Part shown: positions 3,308 to 59,403 of the stretch, in pieces | How positions within the stretch are numbered: position 1 is the stretch's first letter | Layout: every line of letters begins with the position of its first letter | From: Methanomicrobia archaeon | GTDB taxonomy: Archaea > Methanobacteriota_B > Thermococci > Methanofastidiosales > NM3 | DNA: 64,000 nt | Direction of reading: 5' to 3' | Assembly: GCA_030603445.1 (NCBI GenBank) | Contig: JAUVXU010000001.1 | Location: forward strand, 43,924-107,923 | Notes under the pieces: generated by a model | The model's database searches: none | Told to the model about the DNA's origin: nothing | Seen by the model: only the letters and a program-made list of their open reading frames with translations | Translations under genes and position numbers: made by a program

Positions 3308-3332
3308 TTTGCAGTGGAAACGAAGGGGTATG
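3308..3332 (+). repeat. Isolated ORB-like element (TTTGCAGTGGAAACGAAGGGGTATG), near-identical to the ORB at oriC (28218–28245)
   Basis: It matches the oriC ORB at 28218–28245 at 18 of 19 core positions. It sits in a 430-bp AT-rich spacer about 95 bp downstream of tRNA-Ser. Confidence 0.6.
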
Positions 3333-18319: not shown

Positions 18320-18540
18320 TTATAAAATAAATAATCCATTTATAAATCTTGTGATTAATATGCTATCAAATAGAAAAATATAATTTAAAATAAAGGGCAA
18401 ATAAGCAAAATATCCACATCCGGGTGTTGTTTCAAATCTTAAGCATTTTAAGAGATGCTAGTAAATACGTGCAAAACTCTTTCATTGATTTACTTACTTT
18501 TTTCGAAAAAATATTAACTGCAGATAAAGCGGACTATCGT

Positions 18541-19779: not shown

Positions 19780-19909
19780 GTACTACTTATAAGTGTTTTT
19801 TATTAATAAATTTTTCTATTTAGCACTAAAAAAAGATAAAATATCACTTTTTAATGCCATATGTAACTTATAGAATTTTTTGATTATCCTACCTCTATCC
19901 CTGGAGCGT

Positions 19910-21672: not shown

Positions 21673-24600
21673 CTAAGGCCCGAAATCTGCAAGAGTCATC
21701 TGCGTTACCTTCTCCTTGAAAACAGATTCAAGCTCTTTTTCGATTATATCAATGCGCTGCGCTATGTATGGATCAATTTTATAATTCCTAATAATGTCCT
21801 TGCTAACCTGCAAATACTTCTCAACAGATCCTTTCGATACTGTGAGCACCAAGCGTCCACCATAACATTTGCTGCACTTTCCAGATAGGGGTATACGCCG
21901 ATATATAGTATTACAGCTAACACAGCGAAAAGTCTGCTTTGAAAAGGAGCGCAAATTCCCTATAATGTCTGGTATGAAATGTGAAACTATGACCCGTTGC
22001 GCCGTATCATCTAGATCCACAGCACGTATCTTGCGTGCAAGCTCCAGCTGCGCATCTATTTTTTCTGCCATAGATCCGAGTGTCTTGTATGCCGAGACGC
22101 TTGGGCCATCAGCTATATCACGTGTTGGGAGCGTGTAATGCAAATTGTAAAGTGCCTTTTCACTTCCTAAATGGTCAGCAACTGTTGGCAAAGAACACTT
22201 TGAGGGGTGGATGTACTGCTGCGTCTGTTCATAAAATGACACTGGATAACGCCTTGAGGTATCTATATTATATGCCTCCTTATCAATTTCCTCGGGGTCT
22301 ATTCTGGTAGTTAACACAAGAGGGGCATCCATCTTTCCTCCCCTATGCACAGGTAAGTAGTGTCGTGAAAAATTTAACAATGCATCTAACAAAAGAATGA
22401 TTGCATCCTCATCTCCATCACAATTGCGCCGCTTGGATGCGTGGAAGAATGGATGGGCATAGCCCACCTTTGCGCAAGTGTATCCTATTATGCGCCCTAA
22501 TACTCCTGCAGATGTGTGTGGAGCAAGCCCTATTACAAGATGCCCTACTAGATCTTCTCGATTTTCTGTATTGTAAAATCGTGGGAGTTTGTATACTCGC
22601 TCCAGTAAATCGTCAATAAAAGAACAGCATTTTAAGAGATAATCTGCGCCATTGTCCGAAACTATGATATCTTGCACCTTTAGCTCCACTACCTGTTCTT
22701 CACTTGAAAGTGGTTTACCTGCTTCATCAACAGTATACCCCAATTCGCGCATCTTGTTAACTGATGTACTTATCTCCTGAGGGGTAACGTGAGTAACAGG
22801 GACATCCGTGGCATCAAATCTCATGGTCCCGTCCTTGAACACATAAACATGATTATGTGCGCGTAGTATCGCCTTTTCTATGGGTTCCGGGAACTTTTCA
22901 CCAGACATCATGCCAATTACGCCCTTGACCTCTTTTGGCATTGCAATACTTAGGCCCGTGATAGCCTGATTCATCTCAGTCTTGATGTCGATGTTTTGGT
23001 AGGAATAATCGGACATATTTCTGCCGCAAGAAGGGCATTGTTCTATCTTGGTGTCAAATATCTTGCTCTTTCCCATATTGCAATGTTTATTGTTGCATGC
23101 TGCGAACGGAATTGTTTCTTCGCCGCAAGAGGGACATATAAGCTTCGGTATTATTTTCTTGCATGATGGGCACTGCCTGTTTGACACTTCAACGCGTACA
23201 TAGTTATTTTCCCTTGCCTTTATAAGTGAACGTGTCTTGCCGCCAGCATGCCCGACAGGTATCAGGCCATGTACTGGAGGAGACATTGTTCGCTCCTTTG
23301 CTTTCTCCGGGCGCCCCATTCTCCCGCCGACTGTTATAGGGCATTTTGAGCGCATCATTATTCCCAGTGTCTTGCCGATTGCTTCAATCACTATCTCGCT
23401 CTCTGACTTCCCCTCAAGGGATATTAGTGGTATAATATCATCAAATTTCTCTTTGTTGACGCATCTTCTGAAAGTCTCTGATTCTATTGTTATGCCATCT
23501 TTTGTTACAATATGCGGCAGACATATTTTTTCAAGCAGTTCCTTTTCCTTGGACAGAGGGAGCAATAGATTTTCGTTCTTTACAACGCCTTTAGAACACC
23601 AATCGATCAGTTCTCTAAGCTCCTCTAAATTAACATCTTCCCAATGGTATGTGAACCGAGGGTGTAAAGGTATCCCTAACTCCTCAGATATCTTCAACGC
23701 ATCCTTCTCACCAATATCAAATGGATTGTCTATGTATCTCTGATACTTTCTTGAGGCATCGGCTTCTTCAAGTTCCTGCACCCACCACTCCTCCACATAC
23801 CCTGAAGGCACTAGTACGTGGTTATTCTCCAAAAACTCGCCATACCCTATGAGGGCGTCCCCAAGAAACAGTATCTCGTCCACCTTGTCGCATATTTCCT
23901 GTGCCTGTTTTGAGGTCTCTACCCTAAGAACGCTGCCGTTTCTTAACTTTACGATCGGGCCCTCTATGGAGTCGACCGGGGCCGTGACGTTGGCCTTACC
24001 TGGTCTTTCGGTCTTCATCTGCGTCCCTATGGCAAGAAAAGAGTCCACTAAGTACATAGTTGCAGGATGTATGCCCCATCCTGCAAAACCAGTGTTTCGC
24101 GAACGCCCATATCTGATGCGCATCCCCTCTCTAGCCATTGGGTGTGAAAATACGGGTCTGCCGGCAATGATATCCTTTAGATATGTCCAGTTTTCAGAAA
24201 CGCCCCCAACTTCTGCCTTTTTGGACTTCTTACTAGTGCCTACATCCTTGAGCCAGTCCCATCCAACTATAGATACCTTGGACGTTATCTTTAGAACCTT
24301 AGCCGACTTTTGCAATATGCCCTCACAAAGTGCGAGCATTGCCCCTCCACGAAGGCAGTTTGTTTCAATGCGGGGCAGGTCCCTGTGTCCTGTTGCTTCA
24401 ATGTTATCGGTCTTCTCGCCAGTTATCTCAACCCCAATGTTCTCAAGAGCCATCTTCACGTCCTCGCTAGGTGGTTTATACTGCAGGTGAACGCTCCTGT
24501 TATACAACTCGACCTCTTCAATGAAACGTTCTACTTCGTCCTGAGTTACCTTATATGGATCTAGGTGTAGTTTCTGGCGCACGTAATCAGCTATTAGCAC

Positions 24601-25074
24601 CGCCATAGCAGCTGCAGTTCCGCCAGCAGAACGTATTGGGCCAGCAAAGTATATGGCAAGGTACTTTGAATTATCTGAGTTCTCCTTTATCCTTACGCTG
24701 GCTATTCCCTCAAGCGGGGCTGACACTATCCCCTCGGTAAGTATTGCTAGAGCTGTGCGTACTGCCTGCTCTGCTGCTTTTTCTATTGGAAGTGAATCAA
24801 ATTCTCCCTGGCAGATGCGGCCAGCAACCTTAAACGACACCTCCTCACGGGAGATGCCACTGTTGTCAAGTTCTCTAATTAATGCCGCAACGTCGCTTGG
24901 CCCTACAAGACTCTCCACTCGGCTTGCCATATCTTTTGCAACAGGGATCTCGACTTCAAACGATGGATCGCGCCCTTTTTTACGTGCATCTCTGGCTACT
25001 TTATAAAGGATCTCAGCCTCATGTTCTAGCAAAGAAAAATAAGATTCATACGACATTCCCATATCAGTCACCAA
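21673..25074 (-). CDS. polD2: DNA polymerase II (family D) large catalytic subunit DP2
   Basis: 1133 aa with the DP2 Cys clusters (CPSCKK…CPSCGEE, CVSCN…CSKCYGGRL). It is collinear with archaeal PolD large subunits. The size argues against an intein. Confidence 0.95.
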   Translation of the reverse strand: MVTDMGMSYESYFSLLEHEAEILYKVARDARKKGRDPSFEVEIPVAKDMASRVESLVGPSDVAALIRELDNSGISREEVSFKVAGRICQGEFDSLPIEKAAEQAVRTALAILTEGIVSAPLEGIASVRIKENSDNSKYLAIYFAGPIRSAGGTAAAMAVLIADYVRQKLHLDPYKVTQDEVERFIEEVELYNRSVHLQYKPPSEDVKMALENIGVEITGEKTDNIEATGHRDLPRIETNCLRGGAMLALCEGILQKSAKVLKITSKVSIVGWDWLKDVGTSKKSKKAEVGGVSENWTYLKDIIAGRPVFSHPMAREGMRIRYGRSRNTGFAGWGIHPATMYLVDSFLAIGTQMKTERPGKANVTAPVDSIEGPIVKLRNGSVLRVETSKQAQEICDKVDEILFLGDALIGYGEFLENNHVLVPSGYVEEWWVQELEEADASRKYQRYIDNPFDIGEKDALKISEELGIPLHPRFTYHWEDVNLEELRELIDWCSKGVVKNENLLLPLSKEKELLEKICLPHIVTKDGITIESETFRRCVNKEKFDDIIPLISLEGKSESEIVIEAIGKTLGIMMRSKCPITVGGRMGRPEKAKERTMSPPVHGLIPVGHAGGKTRSLIKARENNYVRVEVSNRQCPSCKKIIPKLICPSCGEETIPFAACNNKHCNMGKSKIFDTKIEQCPSCGRNMSDYSYQNIDIKTEMNQAITGLSIAMPKEVKGVIGMMSGEKFPEPIEKAILRAHNHVYVFKDGTMRFDATDVPVTHVTPQEISTSVNKMRELGYTVDEAGKPLSSEEQVVELKVQDIIVSDNGADYLLKCCSFIDDLLERVYKLPRFYNTENREDLVGHLVIGLAPHTSAGVLGRIIGYTCAKVGYAHPFFHASKRRNCDGDEDAIILLLDALLNFSRHYLPVHRGGKMDAPLVLTTRIDPEEIDKEAYNIDTSRRYPVSFYEQTQQYIHPSKCSLPTVADHLGSEKALYNLHYTLPTRDIADGPSVSAYKTLGSMAEKIDAQLELARKIRAVDLDDTAQRVIVSHFIPDIIGNLRSFSKQTFRCVSCNTIYRRIPLSGKCSKCYGGRLVLTVSKGSVEKYLQVSKDIIRNYKIDPYIAQRIDIIEKELESVFKEKVTQMTLADFGP

Positions 25075-26635
25075 AGTTCATTAAGACAAGGTTGTGTGTT
25101 TGTAAATTTATTATGGGGACCTTGGCCACATCAGGCGTTATGTTTCTCATCTTCTGAAAGCTCGTCTGTGACTGCCAACCACCAGAATTTATAAGAGTAA
25201 CGCCGCGATACACCCCATTTCCATTCATGTGGGTATGTCCTGTCTGAAAGATGTCTGGTGTTTCATCTATGCAAAGATAATCGCTGGTCTCAGGAATTAT
25301 CTGCGTCCCTTTCCCATATACAGGCGCAAGATGCCTCTTTCGCAGCATCTCTATCATGGGGGGGATAGGCTTGTTAATCTCGAAACCCGGGACTTGTGAA
25401 AGAAAGTCAAATATCGAGTCGCCATGGTACGCAAGACACTTTACGCCGTGTAGCGAGAAAAAAGAAGGATTAGACACCATATGTATGTTATCCATATCGT
25501 AAAGGTCGTAGGCAAACGCTTTTGGGATAGGTATTTGGGGATTCCCGCTTCTTGTGGCATCGTGATTTCCTGGCGATACTATAACTTCTATCCAATCGGG
25601 GAGATACGATAGCAGCTGTGCCGTTTTCTCATACTGTTTGTATATGTCAGTAATGCAGAGCTCCTTATCCTGATTGGGGTATATGCCAACCCCATCAACA
25701 ACGTCGCCGCAGATAACTATATACTTTATCTTTGATGCTATCTCTTGCTGTTTCTCGTTGCCTGTCTCTAGGCGCAGCCATTTGATGAAGCGCAAAAAAG
25801 ATTTTTCCATAAAATTATTGCTTCCAACATGCACATCTGAAGTGAACACCGCACCAATGTCATAAGGGGATACATTACGATTCCTGCCAAGTGCAATATC
25901 TGGGAATTCGAAGTTATTTGAAAATATTATATCTTCCCCCAACGCCCCAGAAACACCTATAACCTCATCGCACACAATGTACTTTGCACGTTCTAATAAG
26001 CGTTCCTTCTTCGTAGAAACAAGAACTTTTATCGTACCGGAAAGATCCTCAAGCTCCAACATTACGTTTCCGTTCTTAGTTGTCTTCTTACTTCGCACAA
26101 TACCGACTATCTTCACCTGCGATTTTAGTTCATTGGCCTTTGCATTTTTGATACTGACGAAATCGCGAAGTTCTCTGTGTTGCTTGAATATCTTAGATAT
26201 TCGTGTGTAACGATCCTTAAAAAGAGAGAGAAAATCCTCAAATTTTCCTTCAGAATCATCTTTTCCCGACACATCCTTAATAATCTTAATATCCTTATCT
26301 ACGTCCTTTGAAGGTATATGCTTTACTTTTATAGATTTTCTCTTTTTCTCGCTTTTGGGGACCTCGTCGGGAAGTTCTGCTCTTTGTTCCACTGATTCTT
26401 TTTGCTGTCCTGATTCTATACGTGGATAGAAATAATCCTCATAAACGTCTTTTGTAACAATAAATATATTATTTTTCTTCAAATGTGTCATGAATTCTAG
26501 AATAATATCTTCATTTGCTGCATCCTCAAGAAATTTAGCATATGCCTCTTCATTAAGAAGTACACCTTCGTCAAGGAACATGCCTGGTATGTTAATTTTA
26601 CAACTTTGTGTTGATGCCATAAGCCCTCTGCCCAC
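25064..26635 (-). CDS. polD1: DNA polymerase II (family D) small subunit DP1 (Mre11-like calcineurin phosphoesterase exonuclease)
   Basis: It has an OB-fold and a phosphoesterase domain with the metallophosphatase motifs (DVHVGS, GDVVDG, GNHD, GHTH). It overlaps dp2 by 11 nt and orc1 by 1 nt. Confidence 0.95.
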   Translation of the reverse strand: MGRGLMASTQSCKINIPGMFLDEGVLLNEEAYAKFLEDAANEDIILEFMTHLKKNNIFIVTKDVYEDYFYPRIESGQQKESVEQRAELPDEVPKSEKKRKSIKVKHIPSKDVDKDIKIIKDVSGKDDSEGKFEDFLSLFKDRYTRISKIFKQHRELRDFVSIKNAKANELKSQVKIVGIVRSKKTTKNGNVMLELEDLSGTIKVLVSTKKERLLERAKYIVCDEVIGVSGALGEDIIFSNNFEFPDIALGRNRNVSPYDIGAVFTSDVHVGSNNFMEKSFLRFIKWLRLETGNEKQQEIASKIKYIVICGDVVDGVGIYPNQDKELCITDIYKQYEKTAQLLSYLPDWIEVIVSPGNHDATRSGNPQIPIPKAFAYDLYDMDNIHMVSNPSFFSLHGVKCLAYHGDSIFDFLSQVPGFEINKPIPPMIEMLRKRHLAPVYGKGTQIIPETSDYLCIDETPDIFQTGHTHMNGNGVYRGVTLINSGGWQSQTSFQKMRNITPDVAKVPIINLQTHNLVLMNFGD

Positions 26636-27954
26636 TAAAGTTTATGCTGTATCGGGGGCACGTATGTAGCAACACGCTCTATTTTTCTGTCAAGCTCTAG
26701 AACACGTTTGGCTTGGGTGACCGGAACGCCCATACGTATTTCTTTAGTGCGGCCGTAGCGCCCTTTACTAACAACTTTTGCATTTAATATGCCTAGCATA
26801 TCTAGCTCGGATATAATATCAGATATTCTTCGCTGCGTCAATATCTCGCTTGAAGAAAGCTTACACAAGTCACGATAGACTGTATAGACCTCCCCAGTAG
26901 AAATTCCAGAAGGTTCATATTTTTCTAGTAATATACAGGAGTATAAAACAAGCTTTGATTGTATCGGCAGCGTTTTAACGACTTCTACTATTCTGTCCTG
27001 TTCTATATGGTCCTTTGCCTCACGTACATGTTTCTCGGTGATCCTTTTGCTTTTCTCGCGCTCTGCCAGTTCTCCTGCAACCCTGAAAAGATCAAGTGCA
27101 CGTCTAGCATCTCCATGCTCCTGGGCAGCATATGCAGAGCATAACGGTACTACACCAGTATCTATTAAATTAATTGACCTGCAAGACATCTTCGCACGTT
27201 GTGTGAGTATGTCCTGAAGCTGTATGGCGTCGTATGGCGGAAACACTATCTCCTCTTCCCCAAGCGAGCTTCGTACACGAGGATCCAGAAATTCTATGAA
27301 GTTGAGGTCGTTTGTTATACCGATAATGCTAACGCGCGCGTTAACAAGATCAGAGTTTACGCGTGTAAGGTTATATAATACTTCATCGCTCCCCTTTCGA
27401 AGCAATCTATCGATCTCATCGAGAACTATTATGACCAGGCGCTTTTCGCGATCCAGTGTTGAAAAGAACGTGTCATACACCTTATCCGTGGGCCACCCTG
27501 TTAAGGGTATGGACTGCCCAAAATATTCACCCAACTTCGCCAAAAGACGGTATTGTGTATCAACTATTTCACAGTTCATATAAATAAACCAGACTGGATA
27601 ATCATTATCAGTAACAGCAGAGTAGTCGGGAACTATATTATTGTCTCGAAAAGTCTTTGAAAAGAATTTCCCGCCGATCTTTTTGACAAGTGCTTTGCCA
27701 ATATGTTTAACAACAGCTGTTTTTCCAGTACCTGTCTTTCCATACACAAATATATTAGAAGGCGTTTCTCCCTTGAAAACGGATACTAGTATAGCTGCTA
27801 CCTCTTCTATTTGACGCTGTCTATGAGGTAGTTGATCAGGCGTATAAGAATGACGTAAAACCTCTTTATTAATAAAAATGCGTTCATTGCTTAAAAGTTC
27901 ATCAAATAAACAGTCTAGACTCTTTTGGTTGTTCATCATTGCACCTGGTTCCAC
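26635..27954 (-). CDS. orc1: Orc1/Cdc6 replication initiator
   Basis: AAA+ fold with Walker A YGKTGTGKTA, Walker B IIVLDEID, and a C-terminal winged helix. It is adjacent to the ORB-containing origin. Confidence 0.95.
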   Translation of the reverse strand: MEPGAMMNNQKSLDCLFDELLSNERIFINKEVLRHSYTPDQLPHRQRQIEEVAAILVSVFKGETPSNIFVYGKTGTGKTAVVKHIGKALVKKIGGKFFSKTFRDNNIVPDYSAVTDNDYPVWFIYMNCEIVDTQYRLLAKLGEYFGQSIPLTGWPTDKVYDTFFSTLDREKRLVIIVLDEIDRLLRKGSDEVLYNLTRVNSDLVNARVSIIGITNDLNFIEFLDPRVRSSLGEEEIVFPPYDAIQLQDILTQRAKMSCRSINLIDTGVVPLCSAYAAQEHGDARRALDLFRVAGELAEREKSKRITEKHVREAKDHIEQDRIVEVVKTLPIQSKLVLYSCILLEKYEPSGISTGEVYTVYRDLCKLSSSEILTQRRISDIISELDMLGILNAKVVSKGRYGRTKEIRMGVPVTQAKRVLELDRKIERVATYVPPIQHKL

Positions 27955-28292
27955 TAGAAACGGTCCTTTTTATATATTTCCTCTACCCCTTTGTTTCCAA
28001 TGGAAAATTATAATAGAACACCATATTATAAGATATTTTAAGATATTATTAAATGAGGCAGTCCTTCATTTCCAGTGGAACATTTTTTACGAAATTTGGT
28101 TGATTTGCGCTTCAGAAAATGTAATTGCGAAAACTATTTATAGATAGAATGAAATAAGCTTTTAGAACCTTTTTTTATTACAATAATAAAGCATTAAAAA
28201 ATCTTTTTATTATTCTACTCCACTGGAAACGAAGGGGTAGGGGTCAAGCATAATTTAAAAAGGTTTATTAACTAAAATATATTATAAATCGT
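27955..28292. other. Chromosomal replication origin (oriC): inverted ORB elements flanking an AT-rich duplex-unwinding element
   Basis: There is a mini-ORB GTTTCCAATGGAAAA (27993–28007). ORB at 28058–28082 reads, on the minus strand, GTTCCACTGGAAATGAAGGAC. ORB at 28218–28245 reads CTCCACTGGAAACGAAGGGGTAGGGGTC on the plus strand. Between them lies about 130 bp of more than 75% A+T. This is the canonical archaeal origin architecture directly upstream of orc1/cdc6. Confidence 0.8.
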
Positions 28293-28943
28293 ATGGACAA
28301 TTTGTCGGAGAAAAAATCCCTCAATCATTTTCTTCTTGTTCCACACGGCATTAAGTTATATTCTGGGAAGATAGGTTGTTCGAATATAGATGCATACGAT
28401 GCTACGTCTATCATATTTAAAAATATTTTAAAATGGATTTTTGTGGATTATAATATAAAGGAATTCTCATTTATTGGGTTAACATTAAATGCGATGCAGA
28501 CTAGAAGTGCGGAAGAATTAACACCAATTATGGAAGTCGAGTCCACAACATATGAAGATCCTGATTTAGTATCGTTTCTAATGGAGAATCAAATTAAGGT
28601 AACGTTCAAAGGAAACTTCTCTAAACTTCCAAAATATTATAGACGTGCCATGAAGAATATTACAAAGCTCACGGAAAATCACATGGCCCACAAGCTCAAT
28701 ATTTTAGTTGGATATGGCCTTGGCAAAAAAAGTCTTTTTTCAAAGATAAAAAAGAAGCTTTTTAGGGATATTTTTACAAGCGACCCTCCCGACCTAATGG
28801 TAAGCACTGCAGGTAGAGATTTTAGTATTATTTTGGAGAAAATTCCCAAGACTACAAAGACGCTAGTAGTTGATACTATTTTTCCAGAGCTAACGCAGCA
28901 GAATATAAAATCTTTTGTTGATTATTATTTTGCTACACCCTAA
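28293..28943 (+). CDS. Cis-prenyltransferase (UPPS)-fold protein lacking the catalytic DGNRRWA motif (possible non-catalytic NgBR/Nus1-like subunit)
   Basis: 216 aa, collinear with UPPS. HFLLVPHGIKLYSGK replaces H.AIIMDGNGRWA. FIGLTLNAMQTRSAEELTPIMEV corresponds to LTLYAFSSENWNRPAQEVSALMEL. The C-terminal DPPDLMVSTAGRDFSIIL corresponds to PVDLVIRTGGEHRISNFL. This is homology by eye only. Confidence 0.45.
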   Translation: MDNLSEKKSLNHFLLVPHGIKLYSGKIGCSNIDAYDATSIIFKNILKWIFVDYNIKEFSFIGLTLNAMQTRSAEELTPIMEVESTTYEDPDLVSFLMENQIKVTFKGNFSKLPKYYRRAMKNITKLTENHMAHKLNILVGYGLGKKSLFSKIKKKLFRDIFTSDPPDLMVSTAGRDFSIILEKIPKTTKTLVVDTIFPELTQQNIKSFVDYYFATP

Positions 28944-29028: not shown

Positions 29029-30396
29029 CTACTTAGTTGGGAGTAGTTCATTATTTACTATTTCTTTTATTTTTTTAAGATACTTCTTATATTCGTAATG
29101 TAACGTTTGTGATTTAAAATCAAAGTAAGGCTCTTCAAGTGAGATGCTTTGCTCAAAATAATACCGCATACGGGGAGCACGAGATTTCCTGCTTTCGTGG
29201 TATGAGATGGACCATACGTTGTATCGTATCTTTGAGTTAATAAAAGGGGTGTTTAGCAGTCCCATTATTCTTTCTTTATATAGGGGATGGCATCTTATGT
29301 GTACACACCAGTGATATTTACCGTAATCATTTTCATTTAGAGATTTGACGAAGGCGCCAGCTTTTAATGTGCGGGCGCATGCACCAACACTTGCGGCAAT
29401 CTTTTTCGTGTCATCGTAGTTTTTTCCTGTGAGCATTAGGAAGAAATGGGAGCATTTGTCCTTTGGCATTGGATAAACTGTGTAGAATTTGCGTACTATT
29501 CCTGCGTTTTTTAGTTTCTCATAAGAATATCGCCATGCATTATATCCAAATATGTAAGGGTTATTCCCTTCCTTGTCTATTATTTGTGCATCGTGCTTCA
29601 TTAGTCTAGATAAGTCTCCATTATAATATCCTGATTGTAGGTACATTATAAGGCGCGTATCTAGCAGCGATAGACGCAGGCGTTTTTCTTTAGTTGCCTC
29701 GAAAGCGGGTTTGAATGTTTTGTCAAAGTTTATTTTATCGACAACTAATGGCGTCTCACAAATGTTGTTAGGATTTTTCGTAAGATGGTATGGATTGTAT
29801 ATATCCAGTAATCCTTCTAGTTCAAATGCGGTGTAATAAAACAAGACCCCTTCGTCTTTTAGATAGTCCATAATTCGAATTATGGCTTTGGAGTCTGTGT
29901 TGTATACGGATACTAGCATCTCGTTGAATACGCCCTCTTCCAAAGGATAGAAGAAGCTCCAGCTATCAATAGTCTGCAGCAGCGAGATTAGGTAGTCATA
30001 AGTGTACTTCTTTGGGAACATTATGAAAAAGATTAACCTATTAACAGGATTCGTTGAGATCTTCGAAAGATCTATCCAATAGTTCGCTCCGGAAAGATAA
30101 CCTCTCTTCTTTAGTATGGTATTTTTCACGGTTGATATATAGTTGTAGTATTTAAATCCCACAAGTTTGGCTATTTCCCTGTCAGTTAGATCCGGCTGAT
30201 GTCCTAAGATATCTAGAATAGCCATTTGTGAATGGCTTAGCCTTTCATCTTTTTCTAACATTGTTATAGAATTTTCTAGAGATATCATATATATAATGCG
30301 CTCCCTTGTGGTATAGATGGAGGTGATAAGTTGCGTGGATTTCCGCCAGGTTTTGGGCCAGGATTTACTGCACCATGCATTGATGGAGACCCCCAC
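29029..30396 (-). CDS. Hypothetical 420–455-aa protein with an N-terminal winged-helix (MarR/wHTH-like) domain; last gene of the RPA operon
   Basis: A wHTH is present (LSHSQMAILDILGHQPDLTDREIAKLVGF). The remaining ~350 aa are Tyr/Lys-rich with no recognisable family. The alternative start MISLENS… is at 30288. Confidence 0.5.
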   Translation of the reverse strand: MGVSINAWCSKSWPKTWRKSTQLITSIYTTRERIIYMISLENSITMLEKDERLSHSQMAILDILGHQPDLTDREIAKLVGFKYYNYISTVKNTILKKRGYLSGANYWIDLSKISTNPVNRLIFFIMFPKKYTYDYLISLLQTIDSWSFFYPLEEGVFNEMLVSVYNTDSKAIIRIMDYLKDEGVLFYYTAFELEGLLDIYNPYHLTKNPNNICETPLVVDKINFDKTFKPAFEATKEKRLRLSLLDTRLIMYLQSGYYNGDLSRLMKHDAQIIDKEGNNPYIFGYNAWRYSYEKLKNAGIVRKFYTVYPMPKDKCSHFFLMLTGKNYDDTKKIAASVGACARTLKAGAFVKSLNENDYGKYHWCVHIRCHPLYKERIMGLLNTPFINSKIRYNVWSISYHESRKSRAPRMRYYFEQSISLEEPYFDFKSQTLHYEYKKYLKKIKEIVNNELLPTK

Positions 30397-31181
30397 TAGG
30401 CTAACATATAGTGGCCTATGGCTGGTTCAAATATATCTCCAAGTGATAACAGTGATTTAAGTGCTTCCTCAATTTCTGCAGTAGTGAACTTAGAATCTAG
30501 TTCGGCTATAAGTACATCTAGCTCAACGCCTTTCTCATCGCTTTGGAGACTCACTATTTTTTCTAATATTTGTTTTTTTACTATTTCAAGATTTTGTACA
30601 TTAACAGATTCGTCCCTTTCTTTTTCAAGGAGATAATCAAGTTCGTCAATCCCCTCTAATATCTCCGGGGCTATGTTTTCTTTACTTGCAAGTTCTAGGG
30701 CTTTTCTCATCGCTCCGGTAGTCTCCATCAACTCACGTGCACGAAAAGCTGTTTTCTTGAAATGCAGCACACGTGCTACTGTTTCAGCACGCGCCAAAAG
30801 AAGGAATTCCGGTGATACAGAAGTTACTGCTTCTATAGTGAGCTGCTTGTTGTCCTGCCATTCCCTAGGTTTTGCAATTAGTTGAACGAGCATGCCTCGC
30901 TCTAAAGGTTTTATAAGCTGGGCGCGCTCCCTAAACGCAGATCCCCACATCGTGGCAGTAGTATCATCAAGCAGTATTCTTGCATAAGAGTCGTCGTCAC
31001 TAAAATATGGCCCAGAAACTATTGTTGCAACGATTTTGGCACGGTGGATTTTTTCCCCATTTTTAGTAAGAATATAGTTTGGGTCAAAATCTCCCTCTTT
31101 TTCTACATAGTAGCCTGTTTGTAATTCTGATAGGTATACTCGTTTTGCTGGAAGTCGTTTCTTCATATACGTTCCTCCCAT
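30396..31181 (-). CDS. RPA32-like protein (OB-fold plus C-terminal winged helix)
   Basis: The OB core is RAKIVATIVSGPYF…ARILLDDTTATMWGSAF. A C-terminal acidic/helical wH-like region (…AEIEEALKSLLSLGDIFEP) follows. It overlaps the upstream gene by 19 nt. Confidence 0.6.
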   Translation of the reverse strand: MGGTYMKKRLPAKRVYLSELQTGYYVEKEGDFDPNYILTKNGEKIHRAKIVATIVSGPYFSDDDSYARILLDDTTATMWGSAFRERAQLIKPLERGMLVQLIAKPREWQDNKQLTIEAVTSVSPEFLLLARAETVARVLHFKKTAFRARELMETTGAMRKALELASKENIAPEILEGIDELDYLLEKERDESVNVQNLEIVKKQILEKIVSLQSDEKGVELDVLIAELDSKFTTAEIEEALKSLLSLGDIFEPAIGHYMLA

Positions 31182-31537
31182 TTTTTGATCTTGTGGTATA
31201 TATCCATATCCACAGAGGAGAAGTCTTGAATAACTTCTGCGTTTATGCCTTTTCCCATCTCAAAGGGCTTTCCGATGACCCGTATGACAGTTCCTATTTC
31301 ATAGAGTTTGTCTCCAAATATTGTTATTTGCCCTGTGCCATCGTCTATAATCATGGTGTAATCATTCGGGTTAGACCTAATTACAGTACCTATAACGGTA
31401 ACATAATCGTCTTCCTCTTCTATCTCCACTATTTCTTTTTCAACAGCAGGATTTCTACTCACCGTAATCACACTCCAGAATAGATAGGACGTTTTGTGTC
31501 TCTTTGTTAAATTCCAGGGGCCTAATATCCTGAACAT
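31163..31537 (-). CDS. Small OB-fold protein (RPA14-like or RPA-associated protein, COG3390-like)
   Basis: 124 aa; VTVIGTVIRSNPNDYTMIIDDGTGQITIFG is a classic OB-fold ssDNA-binding core. It overlaps the upstream RPA gene. Confidence 0.5.
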   Translation of the reverse strand: MFRILGPWNLTKRHKTSYLFWSVITVSRNPAVEKEIVEIEEEDDYVTVIGTVIRSNPNDYTMIIDDGTGQITIFGDKLYEIGTVIRVIGKPFEMGKGINAEVIQDFSSVDMDIYHKIKKWEERI

Positions 31538-32498
31538 TGATATTTATCCCAGTATACTCATTTTCTGAGATAGACCCTATAAGCACTATCTCCTTTCCAA
31601 GAATATCTGGTTTTTTCTCTAGGATGTACTCAAGGCCAGCGCTCTTTCCTGTGTATCCTGCATCAAGGTAGCCTTGTAGATCACGTGCTATGTTATCTGG
31701 GGACTCTCCGAGGAGTTCTGATGCGCTGTCGCTAAACAAGACGGCCCGGATGTGGTTTGTTCCATCATCTATTCCTATCTCAACTACCATGGCTTTCTTC
31801 GGAACAATGCGTATCTTGCAGTTATCACAAAAGAAGGAATCTTTTGATTTAATGGCCCGTTTATGACATGTAGGACAAGCATCATAGATAAGAAGACGGT
31901 ATATATTGGATATAGTCGCCCTTATCTCTATCGAATGTTCTCCTGGGGATATGTCTATTAGTTTTTTTCTCACTACATTTTGAGGGGATTTGTATGTAAG
32001 TTCTGGGAAATTGCTTTCATCCTCTACTATGATCCTGCCTTTGTAACCGAGGCGTAGTTGTGGGCCTGACGGCCCTTTTACAGATATGCAATTTATTAGG
32101 CGTATCACATTGCCATCATGAATTTTATTATATATGTCTAATTCTCTGTCCCATAAAGTCAAATATATCTTTCCTGTTGGGTCTCCAAGAAGGAATGATT
32201 GAAGCTGTTTTTTCTTCTTGTCTTCCTTGATGAATTCTTTTTTATCGAAAACTCGTAGCACACGAGTAATTAAATGTAGATTCATAAGCCCATCGGTTAT
32301 TTTATCGATTGTGAGCTCTGGCGATTCAACTGTTTCTGTTATGCCATGTTCTGCAGCAATTAGGGAGATTATTCCCTCATCAGTTATGTGGGACCCAATA
32401 GACTCCTTTTTTTCATTTATCATACGTTCTATGGCGTCTTCTCCGAATCCTTTTTCTTTAAGTAATACGACGAGTTCATCTATTCCCATCTTTTTCAC
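31455..32498 (-). CDS. rpa: Replication protein A, short form (N-terminal domain, one OB-fold, C4 zinc finger)
   Basis: The N-terminus (EGIISLIAAEHGI) resembles that of the second RPA at 38162. The OB fold is LTLWDRE…, and there is a Zn finger CPTCHKR…CDNCK. Confidence 0.7.
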   Translation of the reverse strand: MKKMGIDELVVLLKEKGFGEDAIERMINEKKESIGSHITDEGIISLIAAEHGITETVESPELTIDKITDGLMNLHLITRVLRVFDKKEFIKEDKKKKQLQSFLLGDPTGKIYLTLWDRELDIYNKIHDGNVIRLINCISVKGPSGPQLRLGYKGRIIVEDESNFPELTYKSPQNVVRKKLIDISPGEHSIEIRATISNIYRLLIYDACPTCHKRAIKSKDSFFCDNCKIRIVPKKAMVVEIGIDDGTNHIRAVLFSDSASELLGESPDNIARDLQGYLDAGYTGKSAGLEYILEKKPDILGKEIVLIGSISENEYTGININVQDIRPLEFNKETQNVLSILECDYGE

Positions 32499-32590
32499 CT
32501 TAACACGTTATATCAATGATATTTTAGATGCTTTTTCCCTTATATAAATATATAGCAAATCTTTAAATGTAACAATGCAAAAAATATAGT

Positions 32591-34202: not shown

Positions 34203-35594
34203 ATGAAACGCCAATCTAATGCTATTGTTGCATCTTTTTTTATCCTTGCTATTATTGGATTATCAGTATTCTCTGGTTGTATAAATGGCGATATAAACAT
34301 CACGTCCGAGCCAAAAGTTGTGGATTCGGATGGCGACGGCATTCAGGATGTCTACGATAAGTGCCCATTTATCTATGGCCCCATATCAAACGATGGTTGT
34401 CCTGTTGAGGACTTGGATACCCCAGACTTGGATACCCCACCTCCAACTACCACAGTTGCACCCACCACACAGCCACCAACGACCACTTCTCCCCCAACAT
34501 CGCCACCGGCATCAACCCTTCCACCAACAACAGCTCCTCCAACACCCCTCCCTTCCCTAAAAAATTCTGATTGGCCGATGAGGGGATATGATATTGAAGC
34601 TACGGGATACACTCAAAGTTCTGGCATAGTAGTTCAGGCAACACAATGGACTTATCCTCTACTAAACTATGTTTCCTCCGTTCCTTCAGTAGGGTATGGG
34701 AACGTGTATGTGGGGGACGTGGACGGGAATTTTTACTGCATGGACCAGACAACCGGGGGGCTTAAGTGGACATACAAGGCGCGAGATCAGATTATTTCCA
34801 CACCAGCACTTTACAAGGGAAAAGTGTACTTTGGTTCTTACGATAGATATGTTTATTGTTTGGATGCCGTTACTGGCGATCTTGTCTGGAAATACAGGAC
34901 GGGGGATGCTGTGTATTCCTCTGCATTCGTGTACAGGGATAAGGCATATATAGGGTCATGGGACGGAAAGATGTATTGCTTTGATGCAGGTACGGGCGAA
35001 GTTATATGGGATTTTGACACAGGTGCCCTTATACTATCCTCACCTTCCTATTCCAATGGCAGCGTTGTGTTTGGAAACGATAATGGAAATATGTACTGCC
35101 TTAATTATCTTGACGGATCCCTTATATGGGCAACGAATATACCCCATTGCACGATATATGCTACCCCCGCCATTTATGAAGAAAGGATATTTATCACAAT
35201 GTCATCGCGCGACGTTATTTGTCTGGATGAAAAAACAGGAAATCAATTGTGGACATATACTACAAAAGATATCATTCATACCTCTGTGGCAGTTCATGAC
35301 GGCATGGTCTATGCAACATCATTCGATTCTTTTATATACTGTCTAGATGCTTATTCTGGCACACTGTTGTGGCTGCATAAGACATCAGATACCGCTTCCA
35401 CCCCAACAATTTCCAATGGGGTTGTGTATTTGTTGGAAAGTGACGGTCTTGTTTGCTTGAATGCAACAACAGGGATGGCGGAGTCCAGGTATCCTGCGTC
35501 CGGATTCAAGGGGTTATCAGCGATACTAGCAGATTCCCTTCTTTACTTCACTTCGGGAAATACGTTGTACTGCCTTGGGTATATCACAAATTAG
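34203..35594 (+). CDS. Secreted PQQ-repeat beta-propeller protein with a Thr/Pro-rich linker
   Basis: It has a signal peptide and a TTTVAPTTQPPTTTSPPTSPP linker. Repeated G-x-V/LYxGSxDGxxYCLDAxTGxxxW blades (eight or more) are present. Confidence 0.8.
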   Translation: MKRQSNAIVASFFILAIIGLSVFSGCINGDINITSEPKVVDSDGDGIQDVYDKCPFIYGPISNDGCPVEDLDTPDLDTPPPTTTVAPTTQPPTTTSPPTSPPASTLPPTTAPPTPLPSLKNSDWPMRGYDIEATGYTQSSGIVVQATQWTYPLLNYVSSVPSVGYGNVYVGDVDGNFYCMDQTTGGLKWTYKARDQIISTPALYKGKVYFGSYDRYVYCLDAVTGDLVWKYRTGDAVYSSAFVYRDKAYIGSWDGKMYCFDAGTGEVIWDFDTGALILSSPSYSNGSVVFGNDNGNMYCLNYLDGSLIWATNIPHCTIYATPAIYEERIFITMSSRDVICLDEKTGNQLWTYTTKDIIHTSVAVHDGMVYATSFDSFIYCLDAYSGTLLWLHKTSDTASTPTISNGVVYLLESDGLVCLNATTGMAESRYPASGFKGLSAILADSLLYFTSGNTLYCLGYITN

Positions 35595-36360: not shown

Positions 36361-38157
36361 ATGAAGTTACTTATGATGGGCAACGAGGCCATTGGACGCG
36401 GTGCAATAGAAGCTGGCGCAAGCGTTGTTTGTGCCTATCCAGGAACACCCTCTTCGGAGATACCTGCGTATGTGGCGCATCATGCTCACAATCACGGGAT
36501 GTATGTTGAGTATTCCACCAACGAGAAGGTAGCACTTGAGGTAGCTATAGGTACTAGCTGGTCTGGGTTGAGGGCGATGGTGACCATGAAGCATGTAGGT
36601 GTGAACGTAGCTTCTGATGCACTTTTGTCTTTGACGTATACAGGCGTTGAAGGCGGTCTTGTTCTGGTGTCAGCTGACGATCCTACCTGTCACTCATCAC
36701 AAAACGAGCAGGACAGCCGATATTATGCATTGTTGGCAAACATCCCTGCTATGGAACCATCATCACCACAGGAAGCATTGGAGATGACCAAGGTTGCGTT
36801 TGATATATCAGAGGATATAGGGCTCCCAATAATGATGCGCCCAACAACTCGTTTGTGTCATTGCAGGGCGGATGTTGCCATAGGTGTGATACGTGAGAAG
36901 AACGATGGACCAGATTTCAAGAGGGATATTAGTCACAAGGTAACGATACCCTCACACGCACGCCTCTTACATCCCGAACTTCTAGAAAAGATAGAGAAGA
37001 CGAGGGAACTATTTGAAAATAGTCAGTTCAATTGGATCGAAGGAAAAGGAAAGCTTGGCGTCATAGGTTCTGGCATTGCATACACCTACGTTGTCGAGGC
37101 TGCTGCTTTACTCAAAGCTGAAGTGTCAATTCTAAAACTTGGAACTCTGCACCCCCTTCCTAAAGGTGTATTACTTGACTTCTTACGCGACAAGGACATA
37201 GTCGTAGTTGTAGAGGAGATGGAACCAATAGTTGAGCAATATGTGAAAGAGATTGCTTACGACAATGGGTTAACATTAAAAATAAGAGGAAAAGACGTTA
37301 TACCAAAGGTAGGAGAACTGAATACCAAAATTGTCCGAAATGGACTTTCTGAAGCATTTTCGTACGCATATGAAGAAACTATGGCATGTGGAGTACCAGA
37401 AAATACCTTATTACCACCACGCCCGCCCACACTGTGTCCAGGATGCCCCCACAGGGCCACGTTTTACTGTATCAACAAGATGGCAAAAAAGTCTATAAAG
37501 ACCAGCGATATAGGGTGTTATACTCTAGGTGTAGTCCCGCCATTATCTGCTGTTGACACGACATTATGTATGGGAGCAAGCATAGGTATCGCTTGTGGTC
37601 TTTCCGCTGCAGGAAATGAAAAGATAATAGCCACGATAGGCGACTCTACATTTTTCCATACGGGAATGCCAGGATTAGTGAATGCAGTATATAATAATCA
37701 TAATATACTAATGGTCATCCTTGATAACAGGACAACTGCCATGACAGGCCATCAACCCCATCCAGGAACAGGCAAAACTGCCATGGGTGAGCGCGTGCCA
37801 ATAATAGATATAAGGAAGATATGCGAAGCGGTCGGTGCATATACCCAAGAGGTAGACCCGTTCGACCTCAAAGACACCATAGAATGCATGAAGCGCGCAT
37901 TTGAGCATGAAGGCGCATCTGTGATAATTTCGAAGCGTCCATGTACTTTGCTATTAGGCCCTATCGAACGAGAGGCAGAGAATTTTGAGGTGGACAAAGA
38001 TACGTGCAATGGATGCAAACTATGCATAAAACAGCTTGGCTGTCCTGCGCTTTTGTTTGAAGAAGAGAGTAAAAAGGCGGAGATAGACAATCTATTGTGC
38101 ACGAACTGTGGCGTTTGTGCACAAGTGTGTCCGTTCGATGCTATAAGGAGTAAGTGA
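36361..38157 (+). CDS. iorA: Indolepyruvate:ferredoxin oxidoreductase alpha subunit (TPP-dependent, with a C-terminal 2×[4Fe-4S] domain)
   Basis: 598 aa with a TPP-binding region (GDSTFFHTGMPGLVNAVYNN) and C-terminal CNGCKLCIKQLGCPA / CTNCGVCAQVCP ferredoxin motifs. No iorB is adjacent. Confidence 0.85.
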   Translation: MKLLMMGNEAIGRGAIEAGASVVCAYPGTPSSEIPAYVAHHAHNHGMYVEYSTNEKVALEVAIGTSWSGLRAMVTMKHVGVNVASDALLSLTYTGVEGGLVLVSADDPTCHSSQNEQDSRYYALLANIPAMEPSSPQEALEMTKVAFDISEDIGLPIMMRPTTRLCHCRADVAIGVIREKNDGPDFKRDISHKVTIPSHARLLHPELLEKIEKTRELFENSQFNWIEGKGKLGVIGSGIAYTYVVEAAALLKAEVSILKLGTLHPLPKGVLLDFLRDKDIVVVVEEMEPIVEQYVKEIAYDNGLTLKIRGKDVIPKVGELNTKIVRNGLSEAFSYAYEETMACGVPENTLLPPRPPTLCPGCPHRATFYCINKMAKKSIKTSDIGCYTLGVVPPLSAVDTTLCMGASIGIACGLSAAGNEKIIATIGDSTFFHTGMPGLVNAVYNNHNILMVILDNRTTAMTGHQPHPGTGKTAMGERVPIIDIRKICEAVGAYTQEVDPFDLKDTIECMKRAFEHEGASVIISKRPCTLLLGPIEREAENFEVDKDTCNGCKLCIKQLGCPALLFEEESKKAEIDNLLCTNCGVCAQVCPFDAIRSK

Positions 38158-38161
38158 TATT

Positions 38162-39838
38162 ATGTCAGAGGATTTCGAGCGATTCAAGGGGAAGATATCT
38201 AAAGAGGATTTCGAGTGCAGAGTAGCTGAGAAGATAAAGGAATTTCAAGGACTACTGACCAAGGAAGGCGCAATATCTATTATAGCATCAGAGCTTGGAG
38301 TTGAACAAGCGCAACCAGCAGATATATCGATTAAAGTGAGCGACATTGTAGAAGGCATGACAAACATAGATATTGTTGGGCGCGTGACACGAATATCCTC
38401 TGTTAAAGAATTTATACGAAAGACAACAGGAGACACAGGAAAGGTTCTTAGTTTTGTATTGGCAGATGAAACTGATTCTATACGCGTTGTCTTGTGGGAT
38501 GATATTGCAGATAGCGCACGCATGTTTAGTGTTGGTGATGTGGTAAGGGTAACTGGCGGTTTCGCTAAGAAAGGTTTCAACGATTATTTGGAGATATCCC
38601 TCTCAAGGAGAGGAAAAGTGCGTGCATCCACAGCAGAGGTAGATATACCGGTGGTAAATTTTGAGCGTGTTGATATTGGCGATTTGTCGGAGGCCATGGC
38701 AAACATCATGTTGGTTGGGGTAGTTGCAGGAATCTCGGATGTTAAAGAACATGAGCGCAATGGCAGGACGTTTAAAGTATGTTCGATGTATCTTAAAGAT
38801 AACACAGGGCAAACACGCATTTCGTTGTGGAACAATCACGCGGAACTTACTAGAAATTTTTCTATTGGGGATATTATACAGCTAAAAGGTTGTTATACCA
38901 AGGCAGGATTCAATGGCATAGAGGTCCAAACAAATTCGTATACAGAGATCGAGACAAATCCTGTCATTGAGGGTCTTGCTCTACCGACAATAGATCATGA
39001 GCTGCAGCTGGCAGATATTACGTCAGACCACCAGTTCTTTACTGTCAGAGGAACAATAAAACAAGTTTTTGAAAAACGAACATTCGCACGTGATGATGGT
39101 ACCCAAAGTTCAGTAGGGACCATGGAGATACAAGACGAGTCAGGCACGTGTAAGGTAGCGCTGTGGGAGGATAAGGCAGATCTTGTCACATTACTGGCGC
39201 CAGGGACTTGCATCACGATAGAAGGATGCAAAGCACGCGAAGGCCTCGATGGAGTAGAAATTAGTGTTGGAAGATCCGGAAGGGTGGTGCCGCACCTGCC
39301 TGATACACTTGACGTAGGCTTGATGCCAGAAGGCTTGGCAAGGATAATCGAAATAAAGGATGGGACCATCAAGGCGATTAGCAAAGAATCTCAGTTCCTT
39401 ATAAAAACAGAGTCCCAGGACTTTAAGGCAGGAGACCTGATAATTTATAAGGGGCGCCTGGAAGGAGATATTGTAGTAGCAGATTCTGTACATGCAGCTT
39501 CAGACGACTATCCAACTATTGATGATCTTCTTTCGCCCCCATATAAATTTATAAAGGATATTCAATGCGACGAGGTCGTAAGGCTACAGGGCATAGTTCG
39601 TTCTGTGGCAAAGATCAAAGACCACACGCTACTTCATCTTGACGATGGAAGCGGGAACATCACAGGGTATATAAAAGACAATGGAGTTGCTGCAGGGAGT
39701 GAGTACTTTTTTGTTGCTAGGATATTCAATAATGGATTTGGGCCCGAATTTGTCTCACACACCAGTGGACCAGTAGATATGGAGAAGGAAGCATACCAGT
39801 TATTAGAACTTATAGGTGAGGAAGGTAAAGATGAGTGA
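38162..39838 (+). CDS. rpa: Replication protein A, long single-chain form with four tandem OB folds
   Basis: 558 aa with repeated OB modules (…VLWDD…, …ISLWNN…, …VALWED…). Its end overlaps the radA start by 23 nt. Confidence 0.85.
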
Positions 39839-40781
39839 TATTATAAAAGAGATTGAGGACCTGCCTGGAGTAGGACCTATAACAGCCGAAAAGTTACGGG
39901 GCGGAGGATTTTCAACTTTGGAGGCTATAGCAGTGTCATCTCCCCTTGAGCTTCATGAGATAGCCGATATAACGGAAGCCACTGCAGCAAAAGTGATTTT
40001 GGCAGCACGAAATGCTGCAGATGTAGGGGGATTTATCTCTGGTGAGGAATTATATGAGCGAAGACAGACCATAGGCCGGATAACCTCTGGCAGCAGTCGC
40101 CTCGATGAGCTTATTGGCGGGGGTTTTGAGACACAGGCCATAATAGAGGCTTTTGGTGAGTTTGGAAGTGGCAAATCTCAAATTGCGCACCAGCTTATAG
40201 CGGCCGTACAGCTGCCAATTGAGAAGGGTGGGCTTGATTCGGGCGCTGTTTATATAGATACTGAAAACACATTTCGCCCAGAGCGCACAATGTCTATAGC
40301 AAAACATTTGGGCCAGGACCCACATGAGGCGTTACGAAATATTCATGTTGCCCGAGCCTTCAATTCAAGCCACCAGATACTCCTTGCAGAGCGTGCTGAG
40401 GAAATCTTCGAGAAAGGAGACGCGCGGCTACTTGTAGTTGACTCTCTAACAGCGATGTTTAGAGCAGAGTATATTGGGCGGGGCACGCTTGCCGAAAGGC
40501 AACAAAAATTAGGGATGCATCTACGCCAACTACACAAGATTGCAAATGTATATGATGCATGCGTTTATGTTACAAACCAGGTTTCAGCAAAACCAGATGC
40601 TTTCTTTGGGGATCCAACACGCCCTATTGGCGGCCATGTTCTTGGACATTCTGCAACACTTAGGCTTTATTTAAGAAAAAGTAAGCAAGGGCAGCGCATA
40701 GCAAGACTTGTAGACTCCCCGTCACTACCCGAGGGTGAGGCACTCTTCATGCTTACCGAAAACGGCATTGAGGATAAGTAG
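39816..40781 (+). CDS. radA: DNA repair and recombination protein RadA
   Basis: An N-terminal HhH region ([12 protein letters not shown]), Walker [10 protein letters not shown], and Walker [10 protein letters not shown] are present. The true start may be MSDII at 39831. Confidence 0.95.
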
Positions 40782-40933: not shown

Positions 40934-41581
40934 ATGATAGGCATTGATGAGGCAGGGCGTGGAGCGGTATTGGGTCCACTAGTTGTTGGGGCCGTCCAGG
41001 TAGCGGATGAACAACTGTTTTTAGATATGGGAGTTAGGGACTCAAAACAGCTTTCAAGAAAGAGGCGCGTAATTATCGATACGAAGATACGTGCTTGCTC
41101 GAAAGTTTCATTAACAAGCGTAAGCGCAAAGGAAATCGATACCTTCAGGCAACAAGTATCGCTAAACATTATAGAGGAGCGCCTATTCATTCAAGCATTA
41201 ACTAGGCTTCCATGCAAAGGAGAGGTCGTATATATAGATAGCTTTGATACTGTGGAGGGAAGGATAGGAGACAAAGTGTCATCTAAAGTCGGAGGCGTAA
41301 CCGTCTTTTCCAAACACAAGGCAGACGAGAATTATCCTTGCGTTGCAGCAGCATCAATAGTTGCAAAAGTGGCCCGGGATGCGGCTATAACAAATATTGA
41401 TGAATTGGCAGTGAGAACATGGGGGTTGCATATAGGGAGCGGTTATCCAAGCGACCCGACAACATGTGCATTTTTGAGGCATATCGCAGATAAGGGGGAA
41501 AAGTTTCCGGGCTTTGTAAGACAGTCATGGAAAACTGTGCAGCGCTTGTCACAACTAACGCTTGATGCCTACAACAAATGA
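40934..41581 (+). CDS. rnhB: Ribonuclease HII
   Basis: The catalytic motif is GIDEAGRGAVLGPLVV. Confidence 0.95.
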   Translation: MIGIDEAGRGAVLGPLVVGAVQVADEQLFLDMGVRDSKQLSRKRRVIIDTKIRACSKVSLTSVSAKEIDTFRQQVSLNIIEERLFIQALTRLPCKGEVVYIDSFDTVEGRIGDKVSSKVGGVTVFSKHKADENYPCVAAASIVAKVARDAAITNIDELAVRTWGLHIGSGYPSDPTTCAFLRHIADKGEKFPGFVRQSWKTVQRLSQLTLDAYNK

Positions 41582-59391: not shown

Positions 59392-59403
59392 TTGGTGTTT
59401 GTT

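Follow-up and report, generated by a model that had tools for sequence, protein, structure and literature searches.

In Pyrococcus abyssi and Pyrococcus furiosus, replication protein A (RPA) comprises the subunits RPA41, RPA14 and RPA32 (PDB 8AAJ, 8OEJ, 9F26), the genes of which follow each other in the order 41-14-32 with short overlaps. The winged-helix domain of the P. abyssi RPA32 is a recruitment hub for PriSL and PolD (PMC11686378). In haloarchaea, the RPA-associated proteins Rpap1 and Rpap3, made of an OB fold and a winged helix, are co-transcribed with rpa1 and rpa3 (PMC8329085). The locus described here lies in a 64,000-nucleotide (nt) stretch, called the window, of a Methanomicrobia archaeon placed among the Methanofastidiosales (assembly GCA_030603445.1, contig JAUVXU010000001.1, positions 43,924 to 107,923). 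On its minus strand, three RPA genes are followed by a fourth gene, X, which is predicted to encode a fused double Lrp/AsnC-like protein and is probably a gene for a transcription regulator.

RPA operon of the window

The four minus-strand open reading frames (ORFs) listed in an initial annotation of the window were all found at the same coordinates. The RPA41 (Rpa1) gene (31455-32489, minus strand) encodes an N-terminal helical domain resembling the AROD domain (a name taken from PMC10122647), an OB fold and a zinc-finger OB domain, in which the CxxC...CxxC motif reads CPTC...CDNC. Its longest ORF (31455-32498, 347 amino acids [aa]) matches Pfam Rep_fac-A_C (1e-11), NCBIfam PRK08402 (8e-55) and, over residues 7-341, the Rpa1 chain of P. 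abyssi (PDB 8AAJ_A, 3e-45), which confirms the short RPA with N-domain, OB fold and zinc finger recognized at first. The start codon is ATG 32489 and not GTG 32498; in an intergenic alignment of six lineages, both this ATG and the GGTG Shine-Dalgarno sequence upstream of it are conserved, the GGTG being invariant.

The second gene, RPA14 (Rpa3; 31163-31462, minus strand), had been read as a 124-aa OB-fold protein. Its identity as RPA14 stands, as residues 3-98 of the product match the P. abyssi subunit (PDB 8C5Y_C/8AAJ_C, 4e-18; Pfam Rep_fac-A_3, 7e-4), but the product is 99 aa long, starting from GTG 31462 and overlapping the RPA41 stop codon by 8 nt (GTGAGTAG). The orthologues in eight other loci (L001-L008) are called at 99 aa as well, with an identical 8-nt overlap. 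The third gene, RPA32 (Rpa2; 30396-31166, minus strand), encodes 256 aa forming an OB fold and a C-terminal winged helix. It starts at ATG 31166, in an ATGA that overlaps the RPA14 stop by 4 nt and has GGAGG upstream; in homologous loci, the protein has 255-256 aa in some cases and 261 aa in others. The 261-aa ORF of the window matches PDB 9F26_C/8AAJ_B over its full length (8e-46), confirming the RPA32-like OB and winged-helix protein initially described, and the isolated winged-helix chains 9F27/9F29 match its residues 175-255, while its Pfam RPA_C and OB matches are weak. The OB-fold predictions for 31163-31537 and 30396-31181, which had been set beforehand as a test, therefore hold for both genes because of the matches to the P. 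abyssi subunits. The overlaps of 78 nt and 19 nt reported at first were an artefact of taking the longest ORFs, as the starts supported by homologues give 8 nt and 4 nt.

Judging from these three clear orthologies, RPA41, RPA14 and RPA32 form a standard heterotrimeric RPA gene set of the Thermococcales type, arranged in the canonical order 41-14-32 and with the domain sets and short overlaps of the Pyrococcus systems. The Thermococcus-like multi-subunit RPA of the initial annotation is thus upheld. By orthology, the three proteins would be expected to assemble into a stable heterotrimer binding single-stranded DNA (ssDNA). The RPA32 of the window is ~36-40% identical to that of Thermococcus. 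Methanofastidiosa are reportedly kin to Thermococci, and a trimer of the Thermococcus type fits this relationship, extending a well-studied system to Methanofastidiosa. Compared with Pyrococcus, Methanofastidiosa add a fourth gene after RPA32, and the genome of the window also keeps a second RPA.

Gene X and its family

In sequence searches X is nearly isolated: its only Pfam match is a single weak, sub-threshold one (HTH_24), no NCBIfam model matched, and no relative was found in a PDB sequence search, even with X as a profile. Its fold was modelled with AlphaFold on the basis of 12 orthologues (mean predicted local distance difference test score, pLDDT, 76; predicted template modelling score, pTM, 0.77). 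In this model, a unit of three helices, a beta-hairpin wing and a beta-alpha-beta-beta-alpha-beta domain occurs twice and is followed by a C-terminal extension ending in a helix. In the 419-aa numbering of the model, a first winged helix-turn-helix (wHTH-1, residues 19-60), its wing and RAM-1 (83-165) are connected by a poorly conserved linker to wHTH-2 (206-262), its wing, RAM-2 (280-358) and the conserved C-terminal extension (QSISLE...Y.Y and a helix). The HTH helices span residues 19-30/36-43/48-59 and 208-218/226-234/249-261, with a beta-hairpin after each set. The N-terminal wHTH noticed at first is therefore borne out by both the HTH_24 match and the model. No OB fold is present in the model.

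When the model was compared with the PDB by Foldseek, the fused Lrp-like enzyme NirDL ranked first over the whole length (8.9e-9), and the single modules retrieved, after NirDL, dozens of Lrp/AsnC regulators, all with probability 1.00. Weak HTH_24 matches also occur in four of 17 members of the X family, and one source annotates an X homologue as an Lrp family regulator. On the strength of the model, X is Lrp-like by fold and not a family member by sequence. Compared with the Lrp/AsnC regulators P. horikoshii FL11 (PH1519, 2CYY/2E1C), P. furiosus LrpA (1I1G) and Escherichia coli Lrp (2GQQ), to which its identity is 10-18%, X has two modules fused in ~410 aa, a ~40-aa linker and a conserved ~60-aa C-terminal extension. 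X is basic, with an isoelectric point of 9.2. Its two recognition helices (consensus YYNYVSTVKN and YNSWRYSYEKL) are its most conserved segments, with column identities of 0.90 and 0.85 against 0.65 overall, a pattern more indicative of a conserved, specific recognition of nucleic acid than of catalysis.

The fourth gene had been given as a 455-aa ORF overlapping RPA32 by 1 nt or starting about 110 nt downstream. This ORF does exist, but its initial 36-45 codons have a counterpart in no homologue, and in the orthologue of locus L001 (66% identical) the equivalent 5' stretch is closed by a stop and the gene begins with MLEKDE. The conserved start in the window is ATG 30261 (MLEKDE...), 134 nt past the RPA32 stop. 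Gene X thus most likely occupies 29029-30261 (minus strand), with a product of 410 aa and not 455. In four of the other lineages read at this junction (L002, L004/L005, L006 and L008), the RPA32 stop is separated by only 7-10 nt from a GTG or TTG with which the conserved N-terminus of X begins. This short gap argues for co-transcription, and from these four lineages X is taken to be tightly operonic with RPA32 in most lineages.

The 134-nt spacer between RPA32 and X (30262-30395, minus strand) is exclusive to the sub-lineage formed by the window, L001 and L045. It contains a TATA-like sequence (TATATATA) ~30 nt upstream of ATG 30261, and neither a Shine-Dalgarno sequence before this ATG nor an oligo-T run was found in it. 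It probably provides X with its own TATA-driven, near-leaderless promoter. A structured RNA or a terminator in the spacer was considered and dropped, since the folding z-score (+0.49) indicates no excess stability; a bacterial promoter and terminator scan of the window is uninformative for an archaeon. The same spacer holds a candidate antisense micro-ORF (30331-30399, plus strand) of 22 aa (MRGFPPGFGPGFTAPCIDGDPH) with its own Shine-Dalgarno sequence (GGAGGTGA), overlapping the RPA32 stop convergently. Counterparts were read in L001 (7864-7935, minus strand; 23 aa, MRGELPPGLGPGFIAPTLDGDPH) and in L045 (about 1349-1402, minus strand; 17 aa), each of the three having a GGAGGTG-type Shine-Dalgarno sequence, a start codon and a DGDPH-stop end that overlaps the stop codon of RPA32. 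Substitutions between window and L001 fall mostly on third codon positions (5/4/11 for positions one to three). The peptide gave no match in Pfam, and no RNA structure signal was detected in the micro-ORF.

The family to which X belongs is small. A word-indexed search returned 11 close homologues (47-95% identity). The profile search suggested for the fourth protein, run exhaustively with a hidden Markov model against 1.84 billion cluster representatives, returned 26 relatives at E <= 1e-3. Those that are named come from Methanofastidiosia, Theionarchaea and metagenome-assembled genomes labelled Methanomicrobia. No paralogue was detected when the whole family was compared with the 64-kb window by tblastn. 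X thus defines a tiny unannotated family of 26 clusters, with no Pfam model and with a single-chain double Lrp/AsnC architecture.

The loci of the close orthologues are identical in layout. On one strand they carry radA, an RPA gene with three OB folds, iorA, PF04008 and a ThiI/NUDIX gene; on the opposite strand, RPA41, RPA14, RPA32 and X, beyond which come a convergent prenyltransferase-like gene, a ~350-bp gap, Orc1 and the PolD subunits DP1 and DP2. Scans anchored on RPA32, covering the genomes of GTDB and the metagenomes of JGI, found the known lineages again and added further Methanofastidiosa-type loci with X after RPA32 (L016, L018/L049 and L046). In total, X directly follows RPA32 in nine Methanofastidiosa-type lineages, the window included, whereas the same three RPA genes occur without X in about 45 loci of Thermococcus and in one of Hadarchaeota. 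The adjacency nevertheless gives weak support to a functional link specific to X and RPA, because the gene order of the ~17-kb flanks is collinear within Methanofastidiosa wherever that much flank was fetched.

One locus departs from this layout. L045 (OMKS01027661.1, 1-2602) encodes RPA41-RPA14-RPA32, with an RPA32 63% identical to that of the window, but an unrelated convergent 381-aa gene follows RPA32. Its G+C content falls from ~60% to ~35-40% exactly at the junction, located at the RPA32 stop and the micro-ORF, so that L045 may be a chimeric assembly or a real lineage without X.

Distant relatives of X (20-31% identity) reside in unrelated neighbourhoods, none of those examined being near an RPA gene. 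The named ones belong to Theionarchaea, other Methanofastidiosia and metagenome-assembled genomes labelled Methanomicrobia. They neighbour FKBP and PAN in L009, Pelota and TGT in L011, small ORFs and transporters in L012, and Nop10, PAC2 and Endo_dU in L015; in L013 the gene lies downstream of Mre11/Rad50, DUF432 and MscS, and in L068 in an exosome/Pcc1 cluster. A link of these relatives with DNA repair, evoked by Mre11/Rad50 (L013), Hjc (L011) and Endo_dU (L015), was rejected as chance, as it does not extend to L009, L012 and L068. Same-strand pairs of paralogues occur in L012 (3949-7140), L013/L014 (4638-7161) and L068 (4368-6723), where the second copy is identified by its size and absence of Pfam matches only. 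The pairs are spaced by 62-181 nt in L013/L014 and L068, and by ~0.8 kb in L012, with small opposite-strand ORFs in between; they hint at hetero-oligomers or at local duplication. The co-occurrence of X with the RPA operon in other genomes is therefore found in the nine Methanofastidiosa-type lineages but not in Thermococcus, Hadarchaeota or among the distant relatives. According to these contexts, the conservation of X together with RPA is confined to a single class, and its family otherwise acts like a lineage-specific transcription-factor family.

Possible roles of X

X is regarded, with moderate confidence, as a transcription regulator, an intramolecular pseudo-dimer of Lrp-type modules binding a specific site on double-stranded DNA (dsDNA). 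Following this proposal, a fourth gene would have been appended to the RPA operon in the Methanofastidiosa-type lineage. The two RAM domains of its product would associate within the same polypeptide to form the core, in the manner of an Lrp dimer, and both winged-HTH recognition helices would contact neighbouring major grooves of one dsDNA site. X would then regulate transcription and might respond to a ligand through the RAM interface. Operon coupling would tie its synthesis to that of RPA in most lineages, whereas in the lineage of the window X would probably be made from its own promoter in the RPA32-X spacer. The tandem paralogues and varied contexts of the small X family are what is usually seen with transcription factors.

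A candidate target would be found in the region between rpa41 and the divergent ThiI-THUMP-NUDIX gene (32490-32590), which contains two TATA-like boxes. A block of ~45 bp, CATTGTTACATTTAAA.ATTT.CTA.A.ATTTATATA, is invariant there in six lineages (the window, L001, L002, L004, L006 and L008), the proteins of which are only 50-66% identical. This block may correspond to two back-to-back core promoters, to an operator, or to both, and binding of X to it would amount to autoregulation. No second copy of the motif exists in the 64-kb window, which therefore gives no evidence for a regulon.

Several observations weigh against the regulator proposal. No match to Pfam AsnC_trans_reg or to HTH_AsnC-type models was found at E <= 0.05-0.1 in X or in 17 family members. 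Module 1 compared with module 2 by hhalign reached a probability of 3%, that is, no detected similarity, and the internal duplication is therefore visible in the model only. As a consequence of both, the assignment to the Lrp class depends on the 12-sequence model, which is of medium confidence. In the Foldseek comparison of this model, the best full-length match is the enzyme NirDL and not a regulator. In addition, the tight and conserved placement of X after RPA32 within a replication island could reflect a replication-related role, and two core promoters placed back to back could by themselves account for the invariant promoter block.

The initial annotation suggested that the fourth gene may encode a new RPA-associated factor. 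As a fourth, lineage-specific accessory subunit, such a factor would bind the RPA trimer, for example at the winged helix of RPA32, or act with it on DNA at forks or in recombination. The position of X immediately after RPA32 in nine lineages, with the 7-10-nt gaps of four of them suggesting coupled translation, its place inside the replication island beside oriC and its conserved C-terminal extension all speak for such a factor, as does the hub function of the RPA32 winged helix reported for P. abyssi (PMC11686378). However, X has no OB fold, its fold being typical of dsDNA-binding regulators, and none of its distant homologues examined is near RPA. Moreover, the RPA operons of Thermococcus and Hadarchaeota and that of L045 lack X, the adjacency is unspecific as ~17 kb are syntenic wherever fetched, and in the lineage of the window X is set apart by a spacer that probably carries its own promoter. 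The role of RPA-associated factor, which lost ground with the double Lrp/AsnC fold and with a wider family never beside RPA, is thus considered unlikely. The comparison with haloarchaeal Rpap genes leads in the same direction. X resembles them as its gene adjoins an RPA gene in the same orientation, but Rpap proteins are RPA32-like, a role filled here by the RPA32 orthologue.

It is likewise doubtful that X acts as a lineage-specific double-Lrp sensor of the feast/famine type linking the metabolic state to replication or recombination. Such a sensor would be co-translated with RPA and would adjust the supply of RPA or the activity of the origin, whether through the RPA promoter, oriC or the RPA32 winged helix. 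If it did, Methanofastidiosa would possess a four-component RPA module without counterpart in Thermococcales or eukaryotes.

Proteins of the Lrp/FFRP type can build higher-order nucleoprotein assemblies, and X is basic. It might thus be an origin- or chromatin-associated DNA-binding protein that modulates replication initiation, either at oriC, ~0.7 kb downstream, or by coating DNA. This fits with oriC and its ORB repeats, orc1 and PolD lying one gene beyond X, a layout kept in all loci. The collinear island nevertheless accounts for this proximity, X paralogues and distant homologues are far from recognizable origin genes, and, apart from the ORB elements, to which Orc1 binds, oriC showed no repeated candidate X site. 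A role at the origin or in chromatin is therefore held to be quite improbable.

Finally, it is very unlikely that X is a siroheme-decarboxylase-like enzyme of the NirDL/AhbA-B type (4CH7, 4CZC, 4CZD) having kept the Lrp fold and lost DNA binding: although X has the two-module architecture of NirDL/AhbAB, its identity to NirDL is 8-9%, NirD-like Pfam matches are found in 0 of 17 family members, the first rank of NirDL is largely due to its being the sole fused double-Lrp protein in the PDB, no tetrapyrrole, heme d1 or ahb/nir genes occur in the contexts inspected, and, for an enzyme the catalytic histidines of which are reportedly essential, H330 and H334 of X are invariant among close orthologues but not in the wider family, no histidine being conserved across the broad alignment (A2), in which the positions close to invariance are for the most part occupied by structural residues (P, Y, F, L, I). 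In addition, the segments of X that are conserved best are the HTH recognition helices. The likeness to NirDL/AhbA-AhbB is thus architectural and not evidence of a shared function.

Returning to X as a probable regulator, the distribution of the family indicates that one orthologous branch is captured by the RPA operon beside oriC. If this capture is functional, it would be a rare case of a regulator of the metabolite-sensing type connected directly to the proteins that bind ssDNA, here in an uncultured lineage of methanogens; otherwise, the X family would simply be a new family of lineage-specific regulators.

Replication island and neighbouring genes

As deduced from gene content and order, the RPA operon sits in a conserved origin-proximal replication island composed of PolD, orc1, oriC, the RPA operon and a second RPA with radA. 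The probable oriC (27955-28292) is located directly upstream of orc1/cdc6 and contains three ORB elements, an inverted pair of which flanks an AT-rich stretch. The ORB sequence TCCANTGGAAAYRAAGG is present in three perfect copies (27988-28004, 28063-28079 and 28219-28235), although only 0.22 are expected over the full 64 kb, and oriC includes a 39-nt inverted repeat (27980-28018/28205-28243). A fourth site, resembling an ORB except for a single mismatch (3310-3326), stands beside a tRNA-Ser gene (3127-3213). The orc1/cdc6 gene (26635-27954, minus strand; NF001625, 4e-178) is followed on the same strand by those of PolD DP1 (25064-26635) and DP2 (21673-25074), which match Pfam DNA_pol_E_B and PolC_DP2. 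Between X and oriC, a gene convergent with X (28293-28943, plus strand) encodes a divergent cis-prenyltransferase (UPPS)-like protein of 216 aa. It matches Pfam Prenyltransf (1.5e-10), far under the NCBIfam equivalog cut-offs, and its position is kept in all Methanofastidiosa-type loci.

The second RPA gene (38162-39838, plus strand) encodes 558 aa with an N-terminal helical domain and three clear OB folds (~residues 55-385). The protein matches Pfam OB-fold in three stretches (6e-26) and an NCBIfam replication factor A model (4e-60), and its three OB folds are mutually related by hhalign (4e-17 to 3e-19). Its C-terminal ~170 aa were not significantly similar to the OB segments by hhalign and gave a weak tRNA_anti-codon match (E 0.013, residues 473-517), while no match was obtained with this region in the PDB. 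The protein contains seven cysteines, without a CxxC pair or a zinc-finger motif. A single-sequence structure model was useless (pLDDT 31). The radA gene (39816-40781, plus strand; TIGR02236 recomb_radA, 1e-143) overlaps or abuts the second RPA gene, and the RPA-radA order is kept in L002-L008, i.e., in every locus fetched with a flank reaching radA. The four-OB RPA coupled to radA that was proposed initially for 38162 is thus retained as to the RPA and its coupling, but three OB folds are demonstrable and the fourth has only a weak hint. With the RPA1-type protein of Methanosarcina acetivorans and euryarchaeal RPA1, the 558-aa RPA shares tandem OB folds and the lack of a zinc finger; it differs from the RPA1 type by its three demonstrable OB folds, its ~170-aa C-terminal region and the location of its gene between iorA and radA.

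The presence of two RPA systems had been called unusual, but it is not unprecedented, because some Methanococcales are reported to possess both an RPA1 homologue and an RPA41/14/32 trimer (Raymann et al. 2014, PMC3914693). The window provides a further case of a trimer beside an RPA1-type protein.

The second RPA belongs to a conserved iorA-RPA-radA cluster (36361-40781, plus strand) in which the genes are separated by 4 nt and then overlap. The product of iorA resembles the alpha subunit of indolepyruvate:ferredoxin oxidoreductase, and the tight clustering of such a redox gene with genes for recombination is odd. After radA, the gene at 40934-41581 encodes an N-terminus (MIGIDEAGRGAVLGPLVV) resembling that of RNase HII. 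Between the ThiI-NUDIX and PF04008 genes, a secreted-looking PQQ/BamB-type beta-propeller of 463 aa with a Thr/Pro-rich linker is encoded (34203-35594, plus strand). Its gene appears to be a lineage-specific insertion, because only a 43-aa ORF, or nothing, is called at this site in the otherwise collinear DNA of L001-L008. The G+C content of the window is ~40% and falls to ~30% at 18001-20000 and 58001-62000, two regions that contain ORFs of 180-540 aa.

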